Part shown: positions 1,659-51,903 of the stretch, piece after piece
Layout: every line of letters starts with the position of its first letter
Position numbering within the stretch: the first letter of the stretch is position 1
Source: an uncultured Gammaproteobacteria bacterium
Lineage (GTDB): Bacteria > Patescibacteriota > Microgenomatia > Levybacterales > UBA12049
Length of the DNA stretch: 64,000 bases
Reading direction: 5' to 3'
Assembly (NCBI GenBank): GCA_964579845.1
Contig: CAZOHC010000001.1
Coordinates: forward strand, 27,196 to 91,195
Translations under genes and position numbers: made by a program
Notes under the pieces: generated by a model
What the model saw: the letters and a program-made list of their open reading frames with translations, nothing else
What the model was told of the DNA's origin: nothing
Database searches by the model: none

Positions 1659-3464
1659 TTAGGCTTCGTTCTCCATCTCAACGTGCACGACGTGGTGCTC
1701 TTCCAAACGGAAGAGTCCTTCGTCAAGTCGCTTCTGATCAAGGAAATGGGAGATAAAGCCGACTGAGCGTGAGAGAACGAATAACGCATTAAAGAACTCA
1801 ACCTCTGTCAGGTGCCGCAACTCATCATCAGAGTAGCCCTCTTTTTCTGAGAGGATATCAAGTAAAACAGCAGCGATGGTACCGTCAACGTTAAGGATTA
1901 AGTTGCCTTTTTTAGCAACGGTAACCTGTTCAACTGCAAGCGCAAATGATGTAAAGCGTTTGCTTTCCAGTCCGTCACCGTATGACAGTAGAGCTTTTAC
2001 GCGAGGATCAGGCATATCAACGCGATATTTCCTATGACCGATTCCGAGAATGTATTTTTTCTTGGCTGCAAACTCTTCAACAAAGTGATCCGCATCTACC
2101 TTACCGGTTACGCCTGTTATCCAGTTTGCTGCAGCTTCATTGATCGCACCGCCGAACCGGGGACCGACGGTCAAAAGTCCTGCCGACAAAGATGAGACGA
2201 GATCTCTTCCTGCACGTGCGGTGACGATGGTATTTACCGCACCTGAGACATGCGGTCCGTGATCAACAAGCAACCTGAGAATAAAATCAATAAAGGACAC
2301 AAGCTCTTTCGATGAGGCTTTTCTACCTAAAAAGAGATTTGCGACAATCTCAGCAAATGAGTGATCATGTGAAAATGCGAGCAGGTCTTCATCAAGCACT
2401 TTCACCACACCGTTATCATCTGTTGAGATACTGCTTGTGATGAGTGCTTTTTGTCTGTTTTTTGCTTCCTCCATATGCGTAGTATAGTCGATATACTCAT
2501 CGTTGTGTACTGCATCTGATTGCTCGATCTTTTTTACAAAATCAGAAAACGAAGATTCTGCCTGAACGCCAACATCGCGTAAGGCCTTCCGTTTCGCTTC
2601 TGCTGTTTCCGTTCTGGTTTTGGCCATTGCTTTCGCATGACCGAATTGGGGAGCACTCGGAAACAGGGTTGAGACCGTACCGCCGATATAGCAGATAACA
2701 GGTTTTGTGACTTTTCCGTCGCTAATAAGGTCGACAAGCTTATACTCGTCCGTCCCTCCGAGTTCACCGTAATACACGATTACCTCAGTTGCGGGGTCCT
2801 GCTCAGCTGCGAGAAAGGCATCCTCCGGGGTAAATATCGGAAATCGGTCGCCGCCGAATGAGAGTGCGAACGAGATTCGTTTCCCCGATCTGACAACAAT
2901 ATTAATCAGTTCGTTTGTCATACCGCCTGAGGCAGAAAACACCGCAATGCTTCCTTTTGTGAATAATTGTGCTTCAGCAAGTTGCCTGATATCCACACCG
3001 CCGATGGCACCGAGTTTGAGAACCTGCGGAATCAGTAATCCGACGCTGGCAGGACCGATGATACGTACATCTCGTTTTCCGGCATCTTCGTACAGGGCAA
3101 GCGCATGCCGTTCCGGCACATTTTCCGCAAAGACAGCACCTGCCCGTATGGAAGGGAAAGTACTCAACACTGAGCGTGTAGACGTGAGAACACGTCTTGC
3201 AGAACTGAGCTGTAAGAAAAAAGATACTTCCTGCCTCAGGCGCTGAGGAACTGCTTCCCCTGACTGGTAGACCGGGAGCAATATTTCTTTATTTCCGAAA
3301 AAATAACGCTCGAACCGCCGACCTGATGCGATAATACCAACCAGGCTCGGTGACTGTTTTCCGGCCAGGTAATCAAAATCCAGGATTGACTGGAGAATGC
3401 CTGGGTGGCTGCCGACGGCGATAATCTTCGGCTCAATTGATCGAAATGTTTGGATATCTATCAT
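1659..3464 (-). CDS. aclA: ATP-citrate lyase subunit A (CoA-binding/SCS-alpha-like domain plus citrate-synthase-like domain)
   Basis: 601 aa; phosphohistidine loop SAPQFGHAKAMAKTRTETAEAK; block-wise collinear with the human ACLY C-terminal half (HRKYRVDMPDPRVKAL / NLILNVDGTIAAVLLDIL / FVLSRSVGFISHFLDQKRL). Confidence 0.8.
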   Translation of the reverse strand: MIDIQTFRSIEPKIIAVGSHPGILQSILDFDYLAGKQSPSLVGIIASGRRFERYFFGNKEILLPVYQSGEAVPQRLRQEVSFFLQLSSARRVLTSTRSVLSTFPSIRAGAVFAENVPERHALALYEDAGKRDVRIIGPASVGLLIPQVLKLGAIGGVDIRQLAEAQLFTKGSIAVFSASGGMTNELINIVVRSGKRISFALSFGGDRFPIFTPEDAFLAAEQDPATEVIVYYGELGGTDEYKLVDLISDGKVTKPVICYIGGTVSTLFPSAPQFGHAKAMAKTRTETAEAKRKALRDVGVQAESSFSDFVKKIEQSDAVHNDEYIDYTTHMEEAKNRQKALITSSISTDDNGVVKVLDEDLLAFSHDHSFAEIVANLFLGRKASSKELVSFIDFILRLLVDHGPHVSGAVNTIVTARAGRDLVSSLSAGLLTVGPRFGGAINEAAANWITGVTGKVDADHFVEEFAAKKKYILGIGHRKYRVDMPDPRVKALLSYGDGLESKRFTSFALAVEQVTVAKKGNLILNVDGTIAAVLLDILSEKEGYSDDELRHLTEVEFFNALFVLSRSVGFISHFLDQKRLDEGLFRLEEHHVVHVEMENEA

Positions 3465-3479
3465 AGTCTTTCACGTGTC

Positions 3480-4676
3480 TTAGACCTGTCCGGTCGCATT
3501 ATGGACGATCTCGGTTAACAAGACGTCAGGACCGACAACACGTCCGAGCAACGCTTCCTGTGTCAAGAATTCACTCATCTGTTTAAGCCCTTCTGCCTGG
3601 TTCGGCCCGCCCCGCCTGACATACACTCGAACTTGCTGTTCGCGGAGCTCATGTGTATAGTCTGTCAGCGCTCGGATCACACCTCGAAACGTTGCTTTGA
3701 TGTCAGTAAAATTTGCCACCCCACCACCGATAATCAGTACTTTTTTCTCCGCTTTCGAACGAAGCAACAGTTTGAGTACCTGTGTTGTATAGATATACGT
3801 CTCCTCTTCATTCGGATTGCCGCTGTATTCTCCGTAATTCGCGAGTTCTTCGCCCAACCCCATGTTCGCAACCTCATCGGCCAGAACCAAACTCGCACCC
3901 CCACCTGAGAGAAGCATAAAAATACTGCCGTTTGGGTTTAAAACAGTAAGTGTAAAGGCTGCCTGAGAATTTTCTTTGAGCTCCTGAACAACACCTTCTT
4001 CCGCAGTTTGCGCTCCATGTTCGCCATAGGTAAAGTCATGAGCACCCCAACTCTTACCTGCGAAAAAGTCTGCGACACTGTCTACTTCAACAGCAAGATC
4101 AATAACATGCAGTTCATTTCCCTGAAGCACGAGCGGATTAATTTCTAAGAATGAGAAGTAATGTTCATCAAAAACAGCGATGAACGTTTCGATAATATCA
4201 GGAGATAGCCCGATACTTGCTGCAATCTGTGCTTTTCCTTCTGTCCGTTGCTCCTGCTGGTAGGGGAGAAGCACCTGCTGCACAGTATCCTCGTACTCCT
4301 CGATGTCAATCCCACCCCGAGGCGATATCGAAACCACGTAGCCGTCCCGCTGCCGTTCCATGGCAAAATATTTTTCATGCTCACCATCATACCGTGCCAT
4401 CGGTTCAATAAGAAACTGCGAAAAACCCTTGGCAGTGATATCACTCAGTACTGCAGGAATTTCTTGAGGATTAAGGTTCAGACCGATAAGTCCACGCTTC
4501 ATACGTTTTTTCACACCTTGGTCGACTTTTACCACATATTTTTGTTCAGGAGAAAGACTCTTCAGTTGCGGCTCGATATCCCGATCTGAGAAGACCTGGA
4601 TGCCGAAATAAGGACGGTCTAGCCGAGCAAAGAGGAGGGTTTTTGCCCGAAATTCAGTGATTCGCTGTCTGGCCAT
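3480..4676 (-). CDS. aclB: ATP-citrate lyase subunit B (ATP-grasp, SCS-beta-like)
   Basis: Collinear with the ACLY N-terminus: LIEPM, TVLNPNGSIFMLLSGGGASLVLADEVANMGLGEELANYGEYSGNPNEEETY, LIIGGGVANFTDIKATFRGVIRAL. Start chosen at internal ATG (MARQRITEFRAK, 4676..4674); the track ORF extends to 4736. Confidence 0.8.
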   Translation of the reverse strand: MARQRITEFRAKTLLFARLDRPYFGIQVFSDRDIEPQLKSLSPEQKYVVKVDQGVKKRMKRGLIGLNLNPQEIPAVLSDITAKGFSQFLIEPMARYDGEHEKYFAMERQRDGYVVSISPRGGIDIEEYEDTVQQVLLPYQQEQRTEGKAQIAASIGLSPDIIETFIAVFDEHYFSFLEINPLVLQGNELHVIDLAVEVDSVADFFAGKSWGAHDFTYGEHGAQTAEEGVVQELKENSQAAFTLTVLNPNGSIFMLLSGGGASLVLADEVANMGLGEELANYGEYSGNPNEEETYIYTTQVLKLLLRSKAEKKVLIIGGGVANFTDIKATFRGVIRALTDYTHELREQQVRVYVRRGGPNQAEGLKQMSEFLTQEALLGRVVGPDVLLTEIVHNATGQV

Positions 4677-4766
4677 AAATTCTGTGCTTATTGTACCATA
4701 GAAGCATGAAAAGAGCGCGAATAGAGGAAGTATCACGCATCGGATACCAGGGTGCGAGAAGAAGTC

Positions 4767-32102: not shown

Positions 32103-32873
32103 ATGATCTCTGTGTATAAACCCCTTGGACTCACACCGCTTGAAACTATTCAACGGATTAAAGAGCAGGTGCCCTCGCTTCAGAAACAGAAAGTAAGCTA
32201 CGCAGGCAGACTCGATCCGATGGCTGAAGGGTTGCTCCTGCTATTAGTCGGTGATGAAAATAAAAAAAGAAAAGACTACGAAAATCTACCGAAAATCTAT
32301 GAGTTTGAAGTGCTTTTCGGAATCGAGACAGATACCTATGATCTGCTAGGACGCATTACGCAAACAAGCAATCAGCAACTTGTACTCAGTCGTCATGAGA
32401 TTAACTCCTTCCTGCCAAATTTCCTCGGGACATATAAGCAACCATACCCCCCTTATTCGTCAAAGCCAGTTCAGGGAAAACCTCTCTATCGGTGGGCTCG
32501 TGAAGGTAAACTTGGAGAAATACAAATTCCCGAACGGGAAATTACGATCACTTCCCTCTCACTGCTCAGTGAGGCCTCCCTTTCCCCTGCTACGCTCGCA
32601 GATGCTGTTAAGCAACGTATTACAAACGTAACAGGTGACTTTCGACAAGAAAAAATACTCGCTACCTGGGATGACTATCTCACTAATACTTCCCTTCTTT
32701 CCTTCCCGCTCTTTACTTTTTCAATTGCCTGTTCAAGCGGTACATATGTCCGCTCCCTAGCATATAGACTCGGGAGAGTAACAGTGACCGGCGCCCTCGC
32801 CTTCTCGATCAAACGAACAGGTGTGGGTACGTTTACTCTTGACGATGCGCTGTACCTTGAACCTCAGGAGTAA
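32103..32873 (+). CDS. truB: tRNA pseudouridine(55) synthase
   Basis: GRLDPMAEGLLLLLVG catalytic Asp motif; 256 aa. Confidence 0.9.
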   Translation: MISVYKPLGLTPLETIQRIKEQVPSLQKQKVSYAGRLDPMAEGLLLLLVGDENKKRKDYENLPKIYEFEVLFGIETDTYDLLGRITQTSNQQLVLSRHEINSFLPNFLGTYKQPYPPYSSKPVQGKPLYRWAREGKLGEIQIPEREITITSLSLLSEASLSPATLADAVKQRITNVTGDFRQEKILATWDDYLTNTSLLSFPLFTFSIACSSGTYVRSLAYRLGRVTVTGALAFSIKRTGVGTFTLDDALYLEPQE

Positions 32874-40010: not shown

Positions 40011-40087
40011 TGTACCAGGGGTGGGGCACGATCCCACGACCTCAGCGTTATGAATGCTGTGCTCTAACCAGCTGAGCTACCCTGGCT
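40011..40087 (-). tRNA. tRNA with CAU anticodon (Met, or Ile2/lysidine type); non-canonical details (G1.U72, A31.C39, T-loop ATCGTGC)
   Basis: Reverse complement GCCAGGGTAGCTCAGCTGGTTAGAGCACAGCATTCATAACGCTGAGGTCGTGGGATCGTGCCCCACCCCTGGTA folds as a cloverleaf: canonical D-arm, anticodon loop TTCATAA, 5-nt variable loop. Confidence 0.6.
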
Positions 40088-40147: not shown

Positions 40148-40176
40148 TTGACCGTGAAGCAAATAACCTGTATAAT
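40148..40176 (+). promoter_or_regulatory. strong sigma70-type promoter TTGACC-17-TATAAT driving the tRNA-like sRNA
   Basis: TTGACC at 40148-40153, exact 17-nt spacer, TATAAT at 40171-40176; predicted TSS about 40183-40186. Confidence 0.55.
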
Positions 40177-40187
40177 CTCCTTTACGC

Positions 40188-40253
40188 GCGGGGTAGTGTA
40201 AGGCGCACGCGAGGCTCATAATCTTGCAGTCTGGTTTCGATACCAGCCCCGCA
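40188..40253 (+). ncRNA. 66-nt tRNA-like small RNA (7-bp acceptor-like stem, anticodon-like loop CUCAUAA, UUCGAU T-loop-like hairpin; compacted D/T arms)
   Basis: GCGGGGTAGTGTAAGGCGCACGCGAGGCTCATAATCTTGCAGTCTGGTTTCGATACCAGCCCCGCA; 5' GCGGGGU pairs with 3' GCCCCGC; flanked by its own promoter and terminator; about 7 nt too short for a canonical tRNA. Confidence 0.45.
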
Positions 40254-40263
40254 ACACAGAGGA

Positions 40264-40295
40264 ATGAGGAGGATTTTATATCCTCCTCATTTTCT
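40264..40295 (+). terminator. intrinsic terminator (ATGAGGAGGAT-TTTAT-ATCCTCCTCAT then TTTCT)
   Basis: Perfect 11-bp stem and 5-nt loop with a T-run on the + strand; overlaps the stop codon of the convergent methyltransferase gene. Confidence 0.55.
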
Positions 40296-40817
40296 ATATA
40301 ACCTGAGGTTACCATTCTTTTGCACAACCTTCCAGTGAGGGAAAGAGAATGTGTTCAAAATAACCCATGTACCAGGTGTTACCTCGTTCTCCAATTTTTT
40401 CTCAAGACGACGCATCATATACGGTATACCGTAGATGATGAGGATGTCATACTTTGAAAAATCTTCACGCCAGAAGTCCCGCCAGTACACGCTTGCTTTG
40501 TTCTCTACACCGGCTTGCTTGATACGAAATCTGGAATAGATAACCAAGAGCGGGTTAACTTCGTAGCCATGAACTTCAATGCCTTGCCTCGCCAGTGCGA
40601 GCAATATCTTTCCATCACCTGAGCCCAGATCAACCGCTTTCTTCCCTGTGTGGTCCCCGATCATCTCCAGCAGATTTGCAACTGTTTTATCATCGGTTGC
40701 GACATACGGTGCACCACGAGAAGCGATGTAGACGAGAAATAGAAGAACGAGAACTTCAACCAGGAGAAAAAGTGTCAATATAACCAAAAGAACAATGTGT
40801 GCAACTGATAATTCCAT
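40287..40817 (-). CDS. membrane-anchored class I SAM-dependent methyltransferase
   Basis: N-terminal TM; motif I VDLGSGDGKILLALARQG; 176 aa. Confidence 0.7.
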   Translation of the reverse strand: MELSVAHIVLLVILTLFLLVEVLVLLFLVYIASRGAPYVATDDKTVANLLEMIGDHTGKKAVDLGSGDGKILLALARQGIEVHGYEVNPLLVIYSRFRIKQAGVENKASVYWRDFWREDFSKYDILIIYGIPYMMRRLEKKLENEVTPGTWVILNTFSFPHWKVVQKNGNLRLYRK

Positions 40818-43210: not shown

Positions 43211-43360
43211 AATGATGAGATTATACCATACAAACCAACAGGAGAACTACTACAGGCTTGGAGGTGGGAGTACTTGGGATCCCTGGCCGCACTCGGCGAC
43301 GACGAAAGCACTGCAGACGGGGAACCAAGGACCACTTCGTTACCTGCCTTGCTTTACTTG

Positions 43361-43432
43361 TGCGTCCGCTTGGGATCGAACCAAGGACCACTACTTTATA
43401 AGAATAGCGCTCTACCACTGAGCTACGGACGC
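43361..43432 (-). tRNA. tRNA-Ile with UAU anticodon
   Basis: Reverse complement GCGTCCGTAGCTCAGTGGTAGAGCGCTATTCTTATAAAGTAGTGGTCCTTGGTTCGATCCCAAGCGGACGCA: perfect 7-bp acceptor, canonical D and T arms (TTCGATC), anticodon loop CTTATAA. Confidence 0.7.
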
Positions 43433-43515: not shown

Positions 43516-45882
43516 TTATAATCGGGATCGCTGAGCAATCTCTGCTTCAACTGTCTGGACAGAGCGACCGTATTTGAGTCGTGAAAGCTCTTTTATAAGC
43601 TCAGCAACCCTCGGATTCATGAGGGCTTTTTCTTTTGAGATATCTTTGGTCGTATCAAGTGAGAATGGCGGCACAGGTTCACCGTTGACAAGCGTCCGCA
43701 TGTAGCAGTTAAAGCGATCGATATTAATCAAATCAGCTTCACCGAATGTCGGCTGGAACTCATGCTGCAGATAATTAGCATCAGTAACACCAACTCTGAA
43801 AGAAGCAATCGTACCGACATTACCGAAAATAGCATTCTTCACTTCCTCTTCCATCTGTCCGACAAACTGGTTCGCAACGATCAGGCTCAAACGATATTTC
43901 CTCGCTTCTGAGAGAATTTGTGCAAAGTCAGGCGTTGCGAAGTTTTGGAACTCGTCAACATACAGGAAAAAATCCCGTCGTTGATCCTGCGGCATATCCT
44001 GTCTGCTCATCGCTGAGATTAAGATCTTCGGAACCAGAATTAATCCCAAAAAACTCGAATTTTCCTCACCGATTTTACCCTTGGAAAGGTTTACCAGCAG
44101 AATTTTCCCGGTATCCATTACCTCACGGAAGTTAAACGCATTATCAGATTGCCCGATAATATTTCTGATCATTTTATTGGTCACAAACCGACCGAATTTG
44201 GAGACGATATAGTCAAGCGTCTCTGATTTATGGAAGTCAGACGTATTTGCGATCTGATCAGTCCAGTACCGCCTGATAACCGGGTCCTCAACTTTCGGCA
44301 ACAACTCCTGCACAAAACTCTGATCCGTAAGCGCCCGGACTACCTCCATAAAGGTTGCTCCCGGCTCATACATACAGGTCAACATCGCATTTCTGATTGC
44401 ATGCTCAAACCGAGGCCCGATAATTCCTGTCTTGTTCGGGTCAAAGAGCTTGTACATAAGGCCGATGACTGAGGAGACCATCAGATGCTTCTGCTGCTCG
44501 GTTTTCCCTTCAAGTAAATTAAATCCCATGGGACGCTCCGTATCCCCCGGATCAAACAAGATAACGTCTTCTGCGCGGTGTGGCGGCACCATCTGTAGGA
44601 TATCTTCGATCAAGTCCCCGTGCGGATCGACAACAGCCAATCCTTCGCCGTTGTTAATATCCTGCATGATCATCTGCTTTAAAAACTCTGACTTACCGGT
44701 ACCGGTTTTTCCGATGATATAGGTATGACGCATTCTGTCTTCCCGGCCGACATACACAGGCTTGGAGATGCCACGAAACGTACTCTTTCCCAGATACAGT
44801 CCTTCGGTCGGAATATTAGCAGGAGCAGGCGCACGCTTCGAGTTGACCCAGTGGATACCCGGTGTTGTGACTGATTTATTCGGAAAGTGGAAAAAGGTTG
44901 CGAGTTCTTCCGTATTCAGAATTGAGGTGTGCCCCCAGAGCGGAAAGTACCGATAAATAAAATCCTGCATGAAAAGCCCTTTCATGCGAATCTTCGATTT
45001 CGTGAACGAATTCTGGCCGCTGTACTGTTCCAACGAATGAACGATATTATCAAGGTGTGCACTTGCTGCTTCTTTGGTGCTTGAGGAGACGACGACCCGT
45101 ACTGTGGTCAAAAACCCCGGCTTACCCACTTTTGTCTCAATCCCCTCCAGCTCTTTCGAGTCAGCTGAATATTTGGCGGTTTCCGGGTTTGCTTCATTTT
45201 TTTTGGTTTTGGCGATATAGTCTTTCCCGGCTTTCTTCCAGTCAGAACCGGCAGGACTGATCATCAGTTGGATAGCAGCGCCTTCTCCCGGTCCCATTTT
45301 GGCAAGAATTGAGGTGAGTGAGGACAGCGGATCAACCGGCAGATCTTTAAAGACTTTGAGCGGTTTGTAATCAGCGTCTTTTAAGCGCAGACTCGCAAAA
45401 GCAACCTTCCCATCCTCTGAAAAGATGTTATACTCGCCGCCTACTAACGCATCTGAACGCTGTTTTGCTGCAGGATCGGTTATCTCGACAACTTCAGCCT
45501 CAGGATAGGCACCGTTTATCTGTTTTTCGACAAAGTCACGCAGTTTTTTCGGGACATGGATATAGAATCTGATATCGCCGGGCTGTCCGACCATCTCAAA
45601 GGTGAGGTGAGGTGCCCGCTTCATCTGATACCACTTCGGCTGCTTTCCGATCGATGCGAGCGAGGAAAATAACTGTTCTGCAGCATCTATCTTTACTTCA
45701 TTATCACGAGGAAGGGCAACCTGCAGTAACGATGATTCCAGTGAGTCCTGTTCTCTTTTTTTATTTCGAAGCCACAGCCGAAGCGCTAAGAAGCCGACAA
45801 ATCCCAGTCCGGCAAATACTCCGATCGCCAGCAGACTTATGATGAGGGTGAGCATTAATTGATTGATTGTATCTAGGTCCAT
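43516..45882 (-). CDS. membrane-anchored FtsK/HerA-superfamily ATPase with a TraD/VirD4 (type IV coupling protein)-like NBD and TraM-recognition-like C-terminal region
   Basis: 788 aa; N-terminal TM helix, about 350-aa unassigned domain, Walker A IIGKTGTGKSEF, Walker B LYVDEFQNF, C-terminal block RKYRLSLIVANQFVGQ...IASFRVG. Confidence 0.7.
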   Translation of the reverse strand: MDLDTINQLMLTLIISLLAIGVFAGLGFVGFLALRLWLRNKKREQDSLESSLLQVALPRDNEVKIDAAEQLFSSLASIGKQPKWYQMKRAPHLTFEMVGQPGDIRFYIHVPKKLRDFVEKQINGAYPEAEVVEITDPAAKQRSDALVGGEYNIFSEDGKVAFASLRLKDADYKPLKVFKDLPVDPLSSLTSILAKMGPGEGAAIQLMISPAGSDWKKAGKDYIAKTKKNEANPETAKYSADSKELEGIETKVGKPGFLTTVRVVVSSSTKEAASAHLDNIVHSLEQYSGQNSFTKSKIRMKGLFMQDFIYRYFPLWGHTSILNTEELATFFHFPNKSVTTPGIHWVNSKRAPAPANIPTEGLYLGKSTFRGISKPVYVGREDRMRHTYIIGKTGTGKSEFLKQMIMQDINNGEGLAVVDPHGDLIEDILQMVPPHRAEDVILFDPGDTERPMGFNLLEGKTEQQKHLMVSSVIGLMYKLFDPNKTGIIGPRFEHAIRNAMLTCMYEPGATFMEVVRALTDQSFVQELLPKVEDPVIRRYWTDQIANTSDFHKSETLDYIVSKFGRFVTNKMIRNIIGQSDNAFNFREVMDTGKILLVNLSKGKIGEENSSFLGLILVPKILISAMSRQDMPQDQRRDFFLYVDEFQNFATPDFAQILSEARKYRLSLIVANQFVGQMEEEVKNAIFGNVGTIASFRVGVTDANYLQHEFQPTFGEADLINIDRFNCYMRTLVNGEPVPPFSLDTTKDISKEKALMNPRVAELIKELSRLKYGRSVQTVEAEIAQRSRL

Positions 45883-46449: not shown

Positions 46450-47685
46450 TCAGCACCTGACATCCCGCCGACAGGAAACATTCTGACAGTTGGTTATGAG
46501 CTGATTATACGGTCGTTTATTTTCGAATTTGCAGTGAGGACAGGAAAACGTCAGTTTCCCGTAGCGATCGGTTGCTACCCCGAATTCCATAACACTGAAA
46601 GGAACACTCATTCCGAGGTCTAGTTTACCTCCTCCTGAGAAAGCTTCCTGAGCACCTATACTGAACCCTCCTGAAAACCCACATCCTGTCGTTACCTCTC
46701 TGACAGGCAACCTTCCCCAGTAGCTGATCTGCTCGTCGATACTTTCTTCATCAGCAACCCCCCGCTGATACAGTGTTACCCATTTCCCCGTATCTCGTGT
46801 TTCCCGCTCGAGGTGATCTGCTTTATTCATAATCGTATTTAACAACGTATTTCTCTCCGTAATCGCCCATGGACGTGTGGCGAGAACATTAATATATGCC
46901 AAAAAAAGCGGCTCACATCCTTTAAGGATGTATTCATAGTCCTCACGTGACAGTGTCGTATGCTCCTTATGAAGCACGTTGTGAATATCATCAGCTGAGG
47001 TAAGTCCTGTCTGATCAGGATCAATCATGATCGGTTTACTGAGGAAGTAAGCATCAAACGGCAGATCGGTATATTCATGTTCAGCAAAATACCCGGGAGA
47101 AACTGAGGCAGCAAAGTCGATATACTCATGCCTTTCCAGTGCGGAGCTATAACGGGAAACTTCGATGACACGCTCATCGTTCTTTTCTCTGAGGGTGAAA
47201 ATGTCATAAAAATTATGTTTATACTCCGAATCTTCCCCACCAGGAGGCGAAAGCGAGATCATCCTCGTCCCGACAGGTGTTGTTTCAATCCCGAGAACTT
47301 CCTGTATCTTCGAAAACCCATCCAACTCAGCCTGTTCACGCATTCTGTCATGGTCTGACGAATTTTCATATCGATAATCCCGTCCGCGAGCAAAAACAGT
47401 CTCCAAGGGTTCATCTGAGAATGTGCTATAGATTTTCCCGCCCATGACCCTGTCTTCCCGACTGCTGATACCGGCGTTATACCGTTCACCAAGCATTGTC
47501 TTGAGATTAAAGACCGTTTCCCCATCCAGCATAGCTTTTTTCGCTGCATATTCCTCGGGTAATGTGTCCTTAAGTGCATTGAGCGCTTCGTACTTCTGTG
47601 AATCAAAATCCGGATTATATGTCAGATGACGCTCTTTTTCTGTTCGAACTTCTTTTACATATGGTCTGCTTTCTATTGTTTGCAT
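46450..47685 (-). CDS. hypothetical soluble protein with a C-terminal CPHC...C..C zinc ribbon
   Basis: 411 aa from ATG 47685 (SD GAGGAG inside the leader hairpin); no recognisable catalytic motif; first gene downstream of riboswitch-like leader 2. Confidence 0.5.
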   Translation of the reverse strand: MQTIESRPYVKEVRTEKERHLTYNPDFDSQKYEALNALKDTLPEEYAAKKAMLDGETVFNLKTMLGERYNAGISSREDRVMGGKIYSTFSDEPLETVFARGRDYRYENSSDHDRMREQAELDGFSKIQEVLGIETTPVGTRMISLSPPGGEDSEYKHNFYDIFTLREKNDERVIEVSRYSSALERHEYIDFAASVSPGYFAEHEYTDLPFDAYFLSKPIMIDPDQTGLTSADDIHNVLHKEHTTLSREDYEYILKGCEPLFLAYINVLATRPWAITERNTLLNTIMNKADHLERETRDTGKWVTLYQRGVADEESIDEQISYWGRLPVREVTTGCGFSGGFSIGAQEAFSGGGKLDLGMSVPFSVMEFGVATDRYGKLTFSCPHCKFENKRPYNQLITNCQNVSCRRDVRC

Positions 47686-47840
47686 AAAAAAACTCCTCAC
47701 TACCGAGGAGCATGCATCATACTGCACTTCTACTCGGAAGATTTCTTGGGCTCTGACTTATCTCGCCTGCGGCGGAATCACAGTTGCGGTACAGTGCTTG
47801 AATCACACAAGCTTCACCTCTGACTTTTCCAGATTACTTC
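47686..47840 (-). ncRNA. cobalamin-riboswitch-like leader 2 (aptamer core GGUGAAG...AUUC...ACCGCAACUGUGA; expression platform = SD-sequestering hairpin plus U7 abutting the ATG)
   Basis: Minus-strand RNA GGAAAAGUCAGAGGUGAAGCUUGUGUGAUUCAAGCACUGUACCGCAACUGUGAUUCCGCCGCAGGCGAGAUAAGUCAGAGCCC...GCUCCUCGGUAGUGAGGAGUUUUUUUAUG; its 5' end overlaps the last codons of pduO; paralogous to leader 1. Confidence 0.45.
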
Positions 47841-48356
47841 TTTTTTTTGATCATGATAATTAATCAGACGTGCACTACTGAAAAGCAGGTCAGACAGCCG
47901 ATTCAGGTATCTGAGAACATCCTCTTCTATCGGCTCTTGTTGTATCAGCAAGACAATACATCTTTCTGCCCGCCTGCATACTGTTCTGGCATGATGGAGC
48001 GCTGCGCCTCCTGTTCCGCCGCCCGGGAGGATAAAGTTTCGAAGCGCGGGAAGTTCAGCGGTTTGCGCATCGATCAGTGACTCAAACACCGAAATTCGTT
48101 CACCAATCCCCGACAGCTGTGTTGCAGATGGGTTTGAGAGATAGGATCCGATCGTGAAAAGGTCATGTTGAATCGCTGTCAGCTCTTGCAGTAACGCACT
48201 CTCACGATCGGGAAGTGTTGCGAGCACCATCCCCAGTACACTATTTAATTCATCAACCGTACCGTATGACTCTACCCGGAGATCTGATTTCAGGACGCGC
48301 TTTCCTCCCATGAGTGACGTTTTTCCCTTATCCCCTGTTCGTGTGTAGATTTTCAT
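47814..48356 (-). CDS. pduO: ATP:cob(I)alamin adenosyltransferase, PduO type
   Basis: MKIYTRTGDKGKTSLMGG...; 180 aa; PduO/MMAB family N-terminal signature. Confidence 0.85.
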   Translation of the reverse strand: MKIYTRTGDKGKTSLMGGKRVLKSDLRVESYGTVDELNSVLGMVLATLPDRESALLQELTAIQHDLFTIGSYLSNPSATQLSGIGERISVFESLIDAQTAELPALRNFILPGGGTGGAALHHARTVCRRAERCIVLLIQQEPIEEDVLRYLNRLSDLLFSSARLINYHDQKKEVIWKSQR

Positions 48357-48895
48357 TCTTTTTTTAATGCCGTCGCACGTGGTATGAAAAATGCGCGGAC
48401 GATTTCATACCCTCCGAAGAAAAGAGCCGTATACATGAGATCACTCAGGACGGTGTTCCTAAAAAACGGAAGTGCATAGTAATAGGCATCCATCAGTCCT
48501 GACACGGTCTTTGGGTACAGCAGTCCTCCCATCCAGACACCGAAGTTCGTCAGAAGAAAGAACAACAATGACGACGTTAATGATGCGAGCAGGACAGTCG
48601 AAACCCTGGTGTGTTTTTTCAGTGCCATACCCAAAAACGCCGTCAAGAGAAAACTGCCGTACACGTAAGGCATCGTATCATGGAAGCCGATAATCACATC
48701 CGAGAGAAACATAGCACCGAGCGGAAGGATGAGGGCATATCGTTTGTCCAGGTAAAAACCGCTGAACAGCGCCAAGGCAGCGATTGGGGCGAAGTTTGGT
48801 GCATGCGGTATGACACGAATCAGTACTGCAACAGAGATGATGACAAGCGGCAGCAGGAACGGGGTGATCGCACTTAGTAGGTTTCTATTTTCCAT
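48353..48895 (-). CDS. solitary ECF-S-component-like membrane protein (BtuM/DUF6580-like, putative vitamin transporter)
   Basis: 180 aa, about 6 TM; N-terminal PHAPNFAPIAALALFSG pattern of the DUF6580/S-component type; lies between the DUF4430 and PduO genes. Confidence 0.45.
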   Translation of the reverse strand: MENRNLLSAITPFLLPLVIISVAVLIRVIPHAPNFAPIAALALFSGFYLDKRYALILPLGAMFLSDVIIGFHDTMPYVYGSFLLTAFLGMALKKHTRVSTVLLASLTSSLLFFLLTNFGVWMGGLLYPKTVSGLMDAYYYALPFFRNTVLSDLMYTALFFGGYEIVRAFFIPRATALKKE

Positions 48896-49275
48896 TCGAT
48901 ACGGTCTCCTTCCTTCGTAATGTATTGTTGAGGCCCGACAGGAGAAGAGGTTCCGTTCACATAAAATGCCCAGAACTCTCGCTTGTCAGCTTCTGCTTCC
49001 CGTCCGTTAATTGAGGTAACAAGGCCGGCCTCGTCCTGCGTTATCTGATAGTAACGCTCAAGAAGTAATAAAGCATTGACGCCTTCCTGTCCTTCATAGG
49101 AATAGTGAGGTTCTGCTGCAGGACGTATTTCTTCTTGCGAAGCAGGCGTCGTATTCCGGCTCGCAGTCTGTGATGGTGTGAGACGAACAAGCGTAGCTCC
49201 GACAGCGATCAACGTCACGACAGAGACAACTATGAGTATCAGTTTATATTTATGTTGTTGTAACACGTTCTGCAT
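48874..49275 (-). CDS. DUF4430 (transcobalamin/IF-beta-like) putative cobalamin-binding protein
   Basis: N-terminal anchor; ALLLLERYYQITQDEAGLVTSINGREAEADKREFWAFYVNGTSSPVG...GDRIEWK matches the DUF4430 signature (W.YYVNG...GD.I.W). Start at MQNVLQQ (49275) directly after the U-run of leader 1. Confidence 0.7.
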   Translation of the reverse strand: MQNVLQQHKYKLILIVVSVVTLIAVGATLVRLTPSQTASRNTTPASQEEIRPAAEPHYSYEGQEGVNALLLLERYYQITQDEAGLVTSINGREAEADKREFWAFYVNGTSSPVGPQQYITKEGDRIEWKIETY

Positions 49276-49419
49276 AAAAAAACTCCTCACCCGAGGAGTA
49301 TAGTCATCGTACGAACGATGCTTCCTGCTCGGGATAGAAACTACTGACTCGTTTTCTGACTGTCACAGTTACGGCATAGCCACGGACTTGCACCGTGCTT
49401 TCCGAATCAGTAGGATAGA
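49276..49419 (-). ncRNA. cobalamin-riboswitch-like leader 1 (GGUGCAAGUCC...GCCGUAACUGUGA core; hairpin+U7 platform that sequesters the SD)
   Basis: Minus-strand RNA ...GGAAAGCACGGUGCAAGUCCGUGGCUAUGCCGUAACUGUGACAGUCAGAAAACGAG...CUCCUCGGGUGAGGAGUUUUUUUAUG fills the 145-nt nrdJ/DUF4430 intergenic region; resembles the RF00174 core (GGUGnnAAUCC, CCGCnACUGU). Confidence 0.5.
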
Positions 49420-51903
49420 TTAACATTCGCTATAGCCACAACTATAGCATTTTTTACAACCCTCTTCATACGCAAAACTACTGGTTCCGCACTCAGGGCA
49501 GATATCAAATAGGTTTGTTGTGGAGCTTGATAGATCATAGCCTTTTTCCTGAGGGATCATCGCAAGCTGTCCTTGAGGAACTGCTGCTTCGGAAGAAACT
49601 TGCTCTGAGGGTTCATCATGTTTCACACCGCTTCCGTTCGTGCTCCCTGCTGATACTGTCGCCGGAGACTGGAGCACCTGCGCGACAACTTCTTTATCTT
49701 CGACTTTCCCGTTTACTTTAAAATTTGAGTGCTTCGCAAGTGTTTTCGCCACGGCATCCGGTAATGAGCGAACCCGATTCTCTCCGAATCCGATGCTTCT
49801 TGCACCGCCCAGACCTGATAATTCCGAGATGATCTCTCGCATACGCTCTCGTGTCGGAACAGGGCTGTGAACACGGAGAACAAAAGAAATCATTCTGCCT
49901 AAAGCATCTGCCATTGCCATCAGGTCTGAACCTGATTTACCGTTATTAATAAAGACCTCAAACGGCTCGTTCTTCTCGTTGTGATTAATCGTGATATAGG
50001 TTTTCCCCGTCGGACTGGCTGTTTTATATGTGGTTCCGGTCAGCATCATCGGTCGGGACACACGAGGTGTGGCAGGAATAACAGGTTCAACAGGCACTGA
50101 TTTTTCAGCAGCTTGTTTATCAACAGCAGCATCTTTCTTTTTCTCATCAACGCGCTCTAACACACCAGCACGTGAGCCGTCGCGGAAATACGTTACACCT
50201 TTCAGCCCCATATCATAGGCCATCATATATAACGTCTTCACGTCATCAATGGTATGAGCATTCGGTGCGTTAACGGTTTTGGAAATCGAAGAATCAATAT
50301 ACTCCTGAGCAACTGCCTGCACTCGAGCGTGCTCAAGCGGCGTCAGGTCATTGGATGAGACAAAGTAGTCAGGTCGCTCTTCAGTCGGGTGAGCGTTTTT
50401 CCAGATCTCAAGCAGTGGATGGTACAGGATGTGCTCGCCTGTTCTGTCACGTCGAACAAAGGTAAACTCATATACAGGCTCAATTCCTGATGAAACACCG
50501 GAGAGGAGGGATGTGGTTCCGGTTGGAGCAATTGTTAACAGGACAGCATTGCGAATACCGTTTTTCGCGATTTTGTTCTGGATTGCTTTCGGGAGTGCTT
50601 TAATGTGATGGCCTTGCATGTATTTGTCCGCATCAAACATCGGGAACGCACCTTTTTCTTTCGCAATATCAGCTGATGCGTCGTATGCATTATCTCTGAG
50701 TGTTGCGAAGATCTTCTTAATAACCGGAAGTGATTCCTCAGAGCCATATCGGATTTTCATTTTGATTAGAGCATCTGCAATACCCATAATTCCCAGACCT
50801 GTTCTTCTGATATCTTTTGCACATTTTTCATTTTCTTTATAGAAGTAATAGGTATCGTCAATAACATTGTCTAAAAAGCGCATCGCGATACGCACGTCAT
50901 TCCCGAATGCCTCGTAATCAAACGTACCAGCTTTATCATTGGCGAGGTCTTCTCCTTTGACATACGCTGAGAGGTTCATCGCACCGAGATTACAGACAGC
51001 CCATGGGCCAAGCGGCTGTTCTCCGCATGGATTGGTCGCCTGCAGTCGTTCAAAATACCAGGTATTACTCCATTTATTTGAGCGCTCCAGGAAGTGAAGG
51101 CCGGGCTCAGCTGATTTCCAGGCAGCGGTACAGATCAGATCCCAGAGTTCCCGCGCTTTAACTGTTTTATAGACTTTCACTGCTCCGCCGAGTTCTTTCC
51201 ACTTTGCCATATCGCCGTCCCAGTCTGAATCATACTTCGGATCATCAAGATCAGGATACATGAGGTCCCAGTCCGAATCATCTTTGACAGCCTGCATAAA
51301 TGAGTCAGAAATACAGACAGAGAGATTCGCACCGTTAATTTTTGAGACATCCTGTTTTACCGTAATAAACTCCTCAACATCAGGATGCCAATCCCAGAGC
51401 ATGAGCATGGTAGCACCGCGACGCGAACCACCCTGCTGCACAATATCATGGGTTGCGACTGAGAAGAGGTTTGCCCAGTTGACAGGCCCTGAGGACGTCC
51501 CGTTTACCTTACGGACACGAGCTCCACGAGGTCGGAGTGAGGATAGGTTCAGCCCGACCCCGCCTGAGCGAGCTTGAATTTCAACTAATTGGCCAAGGGA
51601 TTCGAGGATACCGCCACGGGAATCTTTCGGAGATGGAATCACAAAGCAGTTAAAATACGTAACCTGGTAATCAGTTCCTGCTCCTGAGAGGATACGACCG
51701 CCCGGGACAAATTTAAAATCCGTCATGACGTCGTAAAACTTTTTCTGCCATTCACGGCGGACTTCTTTACTTTCTTGTTTAGCAACCCCACGGGCAACTC
51801 GCTTCCACATCTCTTCAGGAGTAGTCTCCGTCGGATCTCCGGCTTCATTCTTTAAGGAATAGCGATCTAAGAATACTTTTTGTCTGATACCGTCAAGTTT
51901 CAT
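49420..51903 (-). CDS. nrdJ: adenosylcobalamin-dependent (class II) ribonucleotide reductase
   Basis: 827 aa; NCFVIPSP..GGVGLNLSSLRPRGARV, NPCGEQPL, C-terminal C..C...C..C zinc ribbon. Confidence 0.9.
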   Translation of the reverse strand: MKLDGIRQKVFLDRYSLKNEAGDPTETTPEEMWKRVARGVAKQESKEVRREWQKKFYDVMTDFKFVPGGRILSGAGTDYQVTYFNCFVIPSPKDSRGGILESLGQLVEIQARSGGVGLNLSSLRPRGARVRKVNGTSSGPVNWANLFSVATHDIVQQGGSRRGATMLMLWDWHPDVEEFITVKQDVSKINGANLSVCISDSFMQAVKDDSDWDLMYPDLDDPKYDSDWDGDMAKWKELGGAVKVYKTVKARELWDLICTAAWKSAEPGLHFLERSNKWSNTWYFERLQATNPCGEQPLGPWAVCNLGAMNLSAYVKGEDLANDKAGTFDYEAFGNDVRIAMRFLDNVIDDTYYFYKENEKCAKDIRRTGLGIMGIADALIKMKIRYGSEESLPVIKKIFATLRDNAYDASADIAKEKGAFPMFDADKYMQGHHIKALPKAIQNKIAKNGIRNAVLLTIAPTGTTSLLSGVSSGIEPVYEFTFVRRDRTGEHILYHPLLEIWKNAHPTEERPDYFVSSNDLTPLEHARVQAVAQEYIDSSISKTVNAPNAHTIDDVKTLYMMAYDMGLKGVTYFRDGSRAGVLERVDEKKKDAAVDKQAAEKSVPVEPVIPATPRVSRPMMLTGTTYKTASPTGKTYITINHNEKNEPFEVFINNGKSGSDLMAMADALGRMISFVLRVHSPVPTRERMREIISELSGLGGARSIGFGENRVRSLPDAVAKTLAKHSNFKVNGKVEDKEVVAQVLQSPATVSAGSTNGSGVKHDEPSEQVSSEAAVPQGQLAMIPQEKGYDLSSSTTNLFDICPECGTSSFAYEEGCKKCYSCGYSEC

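Follow-up and report, generated by a model that had tools for sequence, protein, structure and literature searches.

The 64-kb stretch of DNA analyzed here (64,000 nt of contig CAZOHC010000001.1, below called the window) contains at 40187-40254 of the plus strand a small RNA gene that very likely encodes the initiator tRNA, formylmethionine tRNA (tRNA-fMet), of a Microgenomates-class Patescibacterium. It is very probably the only such gene of the genome and has the compact form that is typical of the clade. An earlier note on this DNA had described the element as a non-standard, tRNA-like RNA of 66 nt and had offered three options: a tRNA mimic (regulatory RNA, decoy or antitoxin), a highly reduced tRNA, or a decaying tRNA. 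The second of these proved correct. As judged from the gene and its relatives, its function appears to be that of an ordinary housekeeping gene, for which no new mechanism is needed.

The note had named a normal call by a tRNA finder, after adjustment of the coordinates, as the result that would speak against a non-standard RNA. With the coordinates moved by one base, ARAGORN called a tRNA-Met(cat) at 40187-40255, and the Rfam tRNA family (RF00005) matched with 41.2 bits, its gathering score being 29 and its model positions 1-71 fully covered by 40187-40254. The unconstrained minimum free energy (MFE) fold from ViennaRNA was the same cloverleaf as the Rfam alignment (-26.4 kcal/mol, z-score -2.46). 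The element is a four-arm cloverleaf tRNA with anticodon CAU, made up as follows:

40187..40254, plus strand: gene, very likely of a compact initiator tRNA(fMet), 68 nt to the discriminator base A73 (ARAGORN, Rfam, MFE fold, covariation)
40187-40193 / 40247-40253, plus strand: acceptor stem CGCGGGG/CCCCGCA, then A73; six G-C/C-G pairs, with C1·A72 the sole non-pair
Between acceptor and D stem, plus strand: U8 A9 (Rfam alignment)
40196-40199 / 40205-40208, plus strand: D stem GUGU/GCAC, 4 bp (alignment, fold)
40200-40204, plus strand: D-loop AAGGC, 5 nt (alignment, fold)
40209-40214 / 40222-40227, plus strand: anticodon stem, 6 bp including G26:C44 (alignment, fold)
40215-40221, plus strand: anticodon loop CUCAUAA, 7 nt, with the anticodon CAT at 40217-40219
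40228-40230, plus strand: variable region AGU, 3 nt (alignment)
40231-40235 / 40242-40246, plus strand: T stem CUGGU/ACCAG, 5 bp (alignment, fold)
40236-40241, plus strand: T-loop UUCGAU, 6 nt (alignment, fold)
40255..40256, plus strand: C74-A75; C74 is templated and CCA is not, the gene reading A73-C-A-C

The element is thus 68 nt long and not 66 nt, and the acceptor stem, previously read as GCGGGGU/GCCCCGC, had been placed one base off. The CUCAUAA loop, the UUCGAU loop and the shortened D region were recovered as described by both the Rfam alignment and the fold. The tRNA is short because of its 5-nt D-loop, its 6-nt T-loop and the Watson-Crick pair at 26:44. It falls outside canonical geometry (T-loop of 7 nt, D-loop of 7 nt or more), which is a departure of size, not of fold: the elbow residues G18, G19, U54, U55, C56 and A58 are present and the contacts 18:55, 19:56 and 54:58 are maintained.

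Relatives of the gene were collected from one genome per species by searching for C1·A72-type CAU tRNAs whose 5′ half is shortened, which gave at least 119 loci. At least 113 of the matches listed have this compact gene, each locus with a single copy, in the pattern CGCGGGG-UA-GUGU-(5-6 nt)-GCAC-…-CUCAUAA-…-CCCCGCA-A. At every locus a covariance model of the family (R1) picked out a single member, with scores of 74.8-97.4 bits; the window tRNA scored 83.3 and ordinary tRNAs at most 43.6. ARAGORN recognizes the compact type in ∼110/114 cases. The record titles of the family loci are mostly Levy-, Gottesman-, Woese- or Roizmanbacteria, Microgenomates or “Patescibacteria group.” A scan of viral contigs gave no match to the family, which argues against a phage-borne tRNA.

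The identity elements of the tRNA point to an initiator. A C1·A72 mismatch together with the pairs 2:71 and 3:70 is the bacterial initiator signature and the main formyltransferase determinant (PMC5389676). The window tRNA has C1·A72, G2:C71 and C3:G70, and this combination was invariant in 86/86 family sequences. A73 and the loop CUCAUAA are both compatible with an initiator, and the loop is invariant across the compact family. The short length, and T- and D-loops that are off consensus, could also suit a gene for elongator tRNA-Met or for tRNA-Ile2 (lysidine) from which a few bases have been lost, or a decaying tRNA pseudogene, an explanation to which we give practically no weight. Elongator or Ile2 tRNAs would be paired at 1:72, in Watson-Crick or wobble fashion, for use by EF-Tu, and what we found is an invariant C1·A72, a mismatch that acts as an anti-determinant of elongator use (PMC5389676). 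An Ile2 identity is further opposed by the presence of a tRNA-Ile(UAU), which already covers AUA.

Several points weigh against the assignment as initiator. The strict run of three G-C pairs in the anticodon stem (29:41, 30:40, 31:39) is replaced by A29:U41, G30:C40 and G31·U39 (au/GC/gu), a combination seen in 85/86 family sequences. It is not disqualifying, because au/GC/gu is a documented natural exception among initiators, found in mycoplasmas and alpha-proteobacteria, with three purine:pyrimidine (R:Y) pairs retained (PMC5389676); the relaxed R:Y form of the rule holds for the window tRNA as well. The D stem of every one of the 86 sequences carries U11:A24 (alignment columns 11/22) and not R11:Y24. 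Bacterial initiators usually carry R11:Y24 in the D stem, as is also visible in one canonical example, and in E. coli it is a minor determinant. We count U11:A24 as a true deviation, though hardly as grounds for exclusion. Moreover, a 6-nt T-loop and a 5-nt D-loop lie beyond the canonical range, and compatibility with methionyl-tRNA synthetase (MetRS), the formyltransferase Fmt, initiation factor 2 (IF2) and the ribosome is here assumed. Lastly, the visible part of this genome is the 64 kb of the window, and the case against a second, canonical initiator elsewhere is indirect.

To assess the conservation of the fold we compared the 86 distinct family sequences with 500 shuffles and with slid registers. 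Standard pairs filled 99.7% of the pair cells as against 91.0% in the shuffles, none of which (0/500) reached as high a value. Two-sided changes were seen at nine pairs, and the covariation score was 0.290 compared with 0.115 for shuffled and at most 0.095 for slid registers. The acceptor stem did not vary, and in the D stem the sole change was G10:C25 to G·U, in 3 sequences, which is consistent with a role in identity. Every one of the five pairs of the T stem showed compensatory changes, as did three in the anticodon stem, and the 26:44 pair was G-C in 48 sequences and A-U in 27. The 6-nt T-loop, the most extreme trait of the window tRNA, was shared by 20 distinct sequences among genomes and JGI metagenomes. 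Their T stem comes in 12 co-varying versions, which confirm the loop length, and all but one of them keep 5 bp around an invariant UUCGAU. As both the MAFFT and the covariance-model alignment misplace the 3′ strand of this subclass by one column, it was counted by explicit parsing; in the pair count the loop-closing pair 50:59 was treated as a gap in 15 sequences, mostly of the 6-nt-loop subclass.

The elbow of the molecule showed the same type of pattern. At the 18:55 contact G18 is combined with U55 or C55 in 50 sequences and A18 with G55 in 35, so that 85/86 sequences are concordant, a value equaled in 0/10,000 permutations. Both states occur with 5-nt and with 6-nt D-loops, and certain pairs of family sequences differ solely at positions 18, 54 and 55. 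G19:C56 was retained in 74/75 sequences. This covariation would be the mark of selection on an L-shaped tRNA and is unexpected in a decaying gene. The window also encodes a TruB-family pseudouridine-55 synthase at 32103-32873 (plus strand), 7 kb from the compact initiator. The window initiator retains U55 and could be a TruB substrate; for ∼40% of sister-lineage initiators this would not apply, because they carry G55.

Decay is excluded by this conservation, as compensatory covariation and invariant identity elements extend over more than 100 species. The same conservation with covariation in more than 100 related genomes makes a role outside translation unnecessary. A tRNA-mimic regulatory RNA, decoy or antitoxin would fit the stand-alone promoter and terminator, the unusually small size and the non-canonical D- and T-loop lengths, and yet we consider it highly improbable. 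The identity elements needed for MetRS, Fmt and the P site are all kept: the CAU in CUCAUAA, A73, C1·A72, G2:C71, C3:G70 and G30:C40 are invariant in the 86 sequences, and the tertiary pair of the elbow co-varies as in an L-shaped tRNA. The gene sits in a block of housekeeping genes with no toxin-like or regulated partner gene linked to it, and no Rfam small RNA family reached its gathering score over the element. A mimic is also not needed, and with one in this place the genome would be left without an initiator.

The sequences at the 3′ end are constrained as well. A73 and C74 are invariant (C74 in 128/128 contexts) and position 75 is A in 83%, so that the family gene end reads “ACA” and not “ACCA”; CCA is templated in merely 12/128 contexts. 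Among bacterial initiator genes in general, 74% template CCA (PMC5143459). As most family genes are without a templated CCA, a CCA-adding enzyme would be required.

The question whether the compact tRNA is the sole initiator was approached through the other tRNAs of the locus:

40013..40086, minus strand: elongator-type partner tRNA-Met(CAU) of normal length (Rfam 58 bits; G1·U72, anticodon loop UUCAUAA, T-loop AUCGUGC)
43360..43432, minus strand: tRNA-Ile(UAU), 70.5 bits, part of the conserved gene block

The partner, correctly described before as a divergent tRNA(CAU) with an unusual T-loop and acceptor, lies exactly 100 nt from the compact gene, and the pairing of both genes is conserved in relatives. 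Its 1:72 position is paired (G·U; G-C in some relatives) and it is without a run of three R:Y pairs. Its T-loop has A54 and U58 where tRNAs universally have the reverse-Hoogsteen pair U54:A58, as though the two partners had been exchanged; A54 is shared by 3-4 close relatives, and most orthologs have UUCGAxx.

Our tRNA census of this genome covers the window, which holds two CAU tRNAs and tRNA-Ile(UAU). As tRNA-Ile(UAU) is present, the genome needs no more than two CAU tRNAs. For 12 complete Microgenomatia genomes, the ARAGORN counts are two CAU tRNAs in 8, one in 4 and never three (PMC13011429 Table S2); these are counts by anticodon, whatever the type of the tRNA. The same table gives two tRNA-Ile for 11/12 of these genomes, and at least three CAU tRNAs (Met, fMet and Ile2) for Patescibacteria classes with one tRNA-Ile, such as Saccharimonadia, JAEDAM01 and others (Ile = 1, CAU = 3). 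Microgenomatia thus appear to read AUA by tRNA-Ile(UAU) and to need one initiator and one elongator Met, which suggests that they do without the lysidine tRNA-Ile2 system; the window holds exactly this set. No canonical initiator was seen at any family locus.

A second, auxiliary or specialized initiator-like tRNA, used for example under stress or for a subset of mRNAs while a canonical tRNA-fMet elsewhere in the genome carries the bulk of initiation, is an explanation that we regard as unlikely. It would agree with the limited part of the genome that is visible and with the lack of three G-C pairs and of R11:Y24, a lack that goes with weaker initiator function in E. coli (PMC5389676). It is opposed by the at most two CAU tRNAs of complete Microgenomatia genomes, given that the compact type is detectable by ARAGORN (∼110/114), by the elongator type of the other CAU tRNA at the locus together with the lack of a canonical initiator there, and by the promoter of the compact gene, the strongest match in the window. 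The compact tRNA is therefore, by strong inference, very probably the genome's sole initiator. The annotation of such genes calls for caution, as isotype classifiers may call them plain “Met”: tRNAscan-SE gives two “Met” in 5/12 complete Microgenomatia genomes and nearly always one in other Patescibacteria classes (PMC13011429 Table S2), and its isotype classifier may be labeling the compact initiator as elongator Met.

Both the gene and its signals form a unit of their own, with the following elements around the tRNA:

40148..40153, plus strand: -35 hexamer TTGACC; many orthologs have this hexamer type equally far from the tRNA
40171..40176, plus strand: -10 hexamer TATAAT, its last base 10 nt before tRNA position 1
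40184..40186, plus strand: predicted 3-nt 5′ leader ACG, from promoter geometry, with the probable transcription start at A40184
40263..40299, plus strand: intrinsic-terminator-like hairpin of 12 bp (AATGAGGAGGAT / ATCCTCCTCATT, loop TTTAT), then TTCTATAT (fold)

The near-perfect sigma-70 promoter that had been pointed out before was borne out: TTGACC-17-TATAAT at 40148-40176 agrees with 11/12 consensus positions at a spacer of 17 nt, and the pattern TTGAC-N18-TATAAT has this single match in the window, with 0.01 expected by chance. Promoters scoring at least 9/12 with the -10 ending 9-10 nt before C1 were found in 38 family members, typically as TTGACC-17-TATAAT, and a second mode of the distance lies at 19-20 nt before C1. 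ACG stands directly before C1 in 57/128 independent contexts (A at position -3 in 67%, G at -1 in 60%). From this we infer a transcription start at A-3, leaving a leader of ∼3 nt for RNase P. Together, the C74-A75 and ACG patterns suggest constrained and unusual end processing, in which RNase P would remove a very short leader and CCA would be repaired in part.

Downstream, the intrinsic terminator stands, with a stem of 12 bp and not 11 bp. Its stem-loop covers 40263-40291, starting 8 nt past the tRNA, with UUCUAUAU on its 3′ side, and the fold of tRNA plus hairpin has a z-score of -4.76. A terminator-like hairpin starting at most 45 nt from A73 was found in 42/107 family members as compared with 49/588 random positions. 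Minus-strand Rfam matches over the hairpin (SpF03, MIR848) scored far under their thresholds and were dismissed. Since the hairpin at 40263-40299 covers the stop codon (40287-40289) of a convergent methyltransferase open reading frame (ORF), it may work in both directions. The stand-alone layout of promoter, gene and terminator is real: the compact tRNA appears to form a unit of one gene, with a strong sigma-70 promoter and an intrinsic terminator of its own, and both the promoter position and the terminator are conserved traits of the family.

Taken together, these features would allow the following course of events. Transcription would begin ∼3 nt upstream of C1, at the A of ACG, and the tiny 5′ leader would be cut off by RNase P. 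The 3′ trailer with its hairpin would be trimmed to about C74 and the end completed by a CCA-adding enzyme. MetRS would charge the tRNA by way of the CAU anticodon and A73, and the formyltransferase would recognize the unpaired 1:72 position with the pairs 2:71 and 3:70. IF2 would then bring the fMet-tRNA to the 30S P site, where selection would rely on the au/GC/gu anticodon stem in place of three G-C pairs. The elbow contacts (G18/G19 with U55/C56, and U54:A58) would be retained despite the shortening.

The surroundings of the compact gene are conserved between species. The gene order is compact initiator, divergent elongator-type tRNA(CAU), DivIC, XerC/D, (PIG-L), tRNA-Ile(UAU) and VirD4-like ATPase; tRNA-Ile(UAU) is syntenic in 32 loci (e.g., L003, L010, L022, L052, L062, L107). 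Among the loci listed, L052 and L022 come closest to the window, with 82.5% identity for Xer and 77.5% and 86.3% for the VirD4-like protein. The tyrosine recombinase nearby could hint at an integrase and a mobile-element attachment site, a reading that we rejected: the XerC/D-like gene and DivIC are syntenic clade-wide at 65-83% amino acid (aa) identity. Beside tRNA-Ile(UAU), a VirD4/TraD-like coupling-protein ATPase of 788 aa (43516-45882, minus strand) is likewise syntenic clade-wide and very strongly conserved, with 64-86% aa identity, and seems to behave like a core gene, not like a gene of a conjugative element.

The Microgenomates compact initiator turned up in many metagenome-assembled genomes (MAGs) that bear the titles “uncultured Gammaproteobacteria/Pseudomonadales,” Acidiferrales, Limnocylindrales or Limisphaerales (L003-L008, L014, L016, L019, L020, L026, L028-L031, L046 and others). 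The titles of these loci are unreliable, because those that were checked have the same gene block (DivIC, Xer, VirD4-like) at 65-85% aa identity. Either the titles look wrong or the bins look contaminated.

As a whole, the window consists of ordinary chromosomal DNA from a small-genome bacterium. It encodes MurB, EF-G, TIM, GAPDH, UvrD, FemAB, a ClpB-like protein, SodA and TruB as well as two class A penicillin-binding proteins, NrdR with a class II ribonucleotide reductase, Gmk, MsrA, DivIC and XerC/D; fmt, def and infC are absent from these 64 kb. An AdoCbl-II riboswitch (49341-49413, minus strand, 51.1 bits) lies directly upstream of an operon at 47814-49290 (minus strand) that encodes DUF4430, DUF6580 and a PduO-type cobalamin adenosyltransferase. 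This pair adjoins the B12-dependent class II ribonucleotide reductase (49420-51903) and NrdR, and riboswitch, adenosyltransferase operon and reductase look like a compact module for B12 salvage and use. Two genes that lie side by side at 1659-3464 and 3480-4736 (both minus strand) have ATP-citrate-lyase-type domains, namely Citrate_bind with an ATP-grasp domain, and CoA-ligase with a citrate-synthase C-terminal domain; judged by these domains, metabolism of the ATP-citrate-lyase type would be unexpected in a reduced Patescibacteria genome. A 425-aa ORF at 46450-47727 (minus strand) had no Pfam match and ends in a Cys-rich, zinc-ribbon-like C-terminal tail (CPHC…C..VSC…C).

In the literature searched (full text) we found no description of compact Patescibacteria initiators, an absence that is no proof. 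The one systematic study of Patescibacteria tRNAs deals with introns only. Within that literature, a clade-wide remodeled initiator architecture appears to be undescribed. Structurally, the window tRNA is one case of this clade-wide variant, whose T-loop has 6 nt here and 7 nt with G55 and C54 in sister lineages, and which differs from several near-universal traits of tRNAs and initiators. We tentatively raise the possibility, on which we would not insist, that the class Microgenomatia has remodeled the one initiator tRNA that it has, down to parts shared by nearly all tRNAs. Such a remodeling would comprise a D-loop of 5-6 nt, a T-loop of 6-7 nt, the Watson-Crick 26:44 pair, U11:A24 and au/GC/gu, as well as C74 without templated CCA, the conserved ∼3-nt leader and, in ∼40% of the distinct sequences sampled, A18:G55 for G18:pseudouridine-55, often with C54. 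If so, formyltransferase, IF2/IF3, the P site and the processing machinery would have co-evolved with the tRNA, in bacteria that are known to have reduced ribosomes, and the clade would present an undescribed natural experiment on the minimal requirements of an initiator tRNA. The rules for initiators (three G-C pairs, R11:Y24, a T-pseudouridine-C loop, templated CCA) derive mostly from E. coli, and here a large uncultured clade violates several of them together, apparently in its sole initiator, with the L-shape preserved by compensatory changes. The ∼86 natural variants are a resource for testing the needs of formyltransferase, IF3 and the P site, and they bear on start-codon fidelity in reduced-genome bacteria with trimmed ribosomes.

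In comparison with known systems, the window tRNA shares with canonical bacterial tRNA-fMet (for example E. coli metZWV/metY) the acceptor strands CGCGGGG/CCCCGCA with C1·A72, G2:C71, C3:G70 and A73, as well as CUCAUAA, G30:C40, the 4-bp D stem and the 5-bp T stem. It differs in length (68 nt as against ∼74 nt before CCA), in its loops (D-loop 5 nt as against 8-9 nt, T-loop 6 nt as against 7 nt), and in having a Watson-Crick 26:44 pair, U11:A24 in place of A11:U24, au/GC/gu and an untemplated CCA. The unconventional initiators of mycoplasmas and alpha-proteobacteria are known with D- and T-loops of normal size. With their anticodon stems (au/GC/GC, GC/GC/gu, au/GC/gu) the window tRNA agrees in A29:U41, G30:C40 and G31·U39 (PMC5389676). 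Unlike these initiators, the compact family joins au/GC/gu to a remodeled elbow, and this stem is fixed class-wide (85/86 sequences). Shrunken D- and T-loops are also a feature of metazoan mitochondrial tRNAs. The compact tRNA resembles organellar tRNAs in its shortened D- and T-loops, and sister lineages have C54 or G55 in place of T54/pseudouridine-55; unlike organellar tRNAs it keeps four arms and G19:C56, and the reduction is mild and affects the initiator only, in a free-standing bacterial genome. Another sub-canonical C1·A72 CAU tRNA with the same acceptor strands belongs to a Terrybacteria (Paceibacteria) MAG (locus L032, 1421-1490 of MHSS01000015.1, minus strand). It differs in lacking nucleotide 26 and in its 7-nt D-loop, A11:U24 and 7-nt T-loop UUCGAUU; it scores 55 bits under R1 and does not belong to the Microgenomates family. 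In Patescibacteria the initiator may have been shortened more than once.

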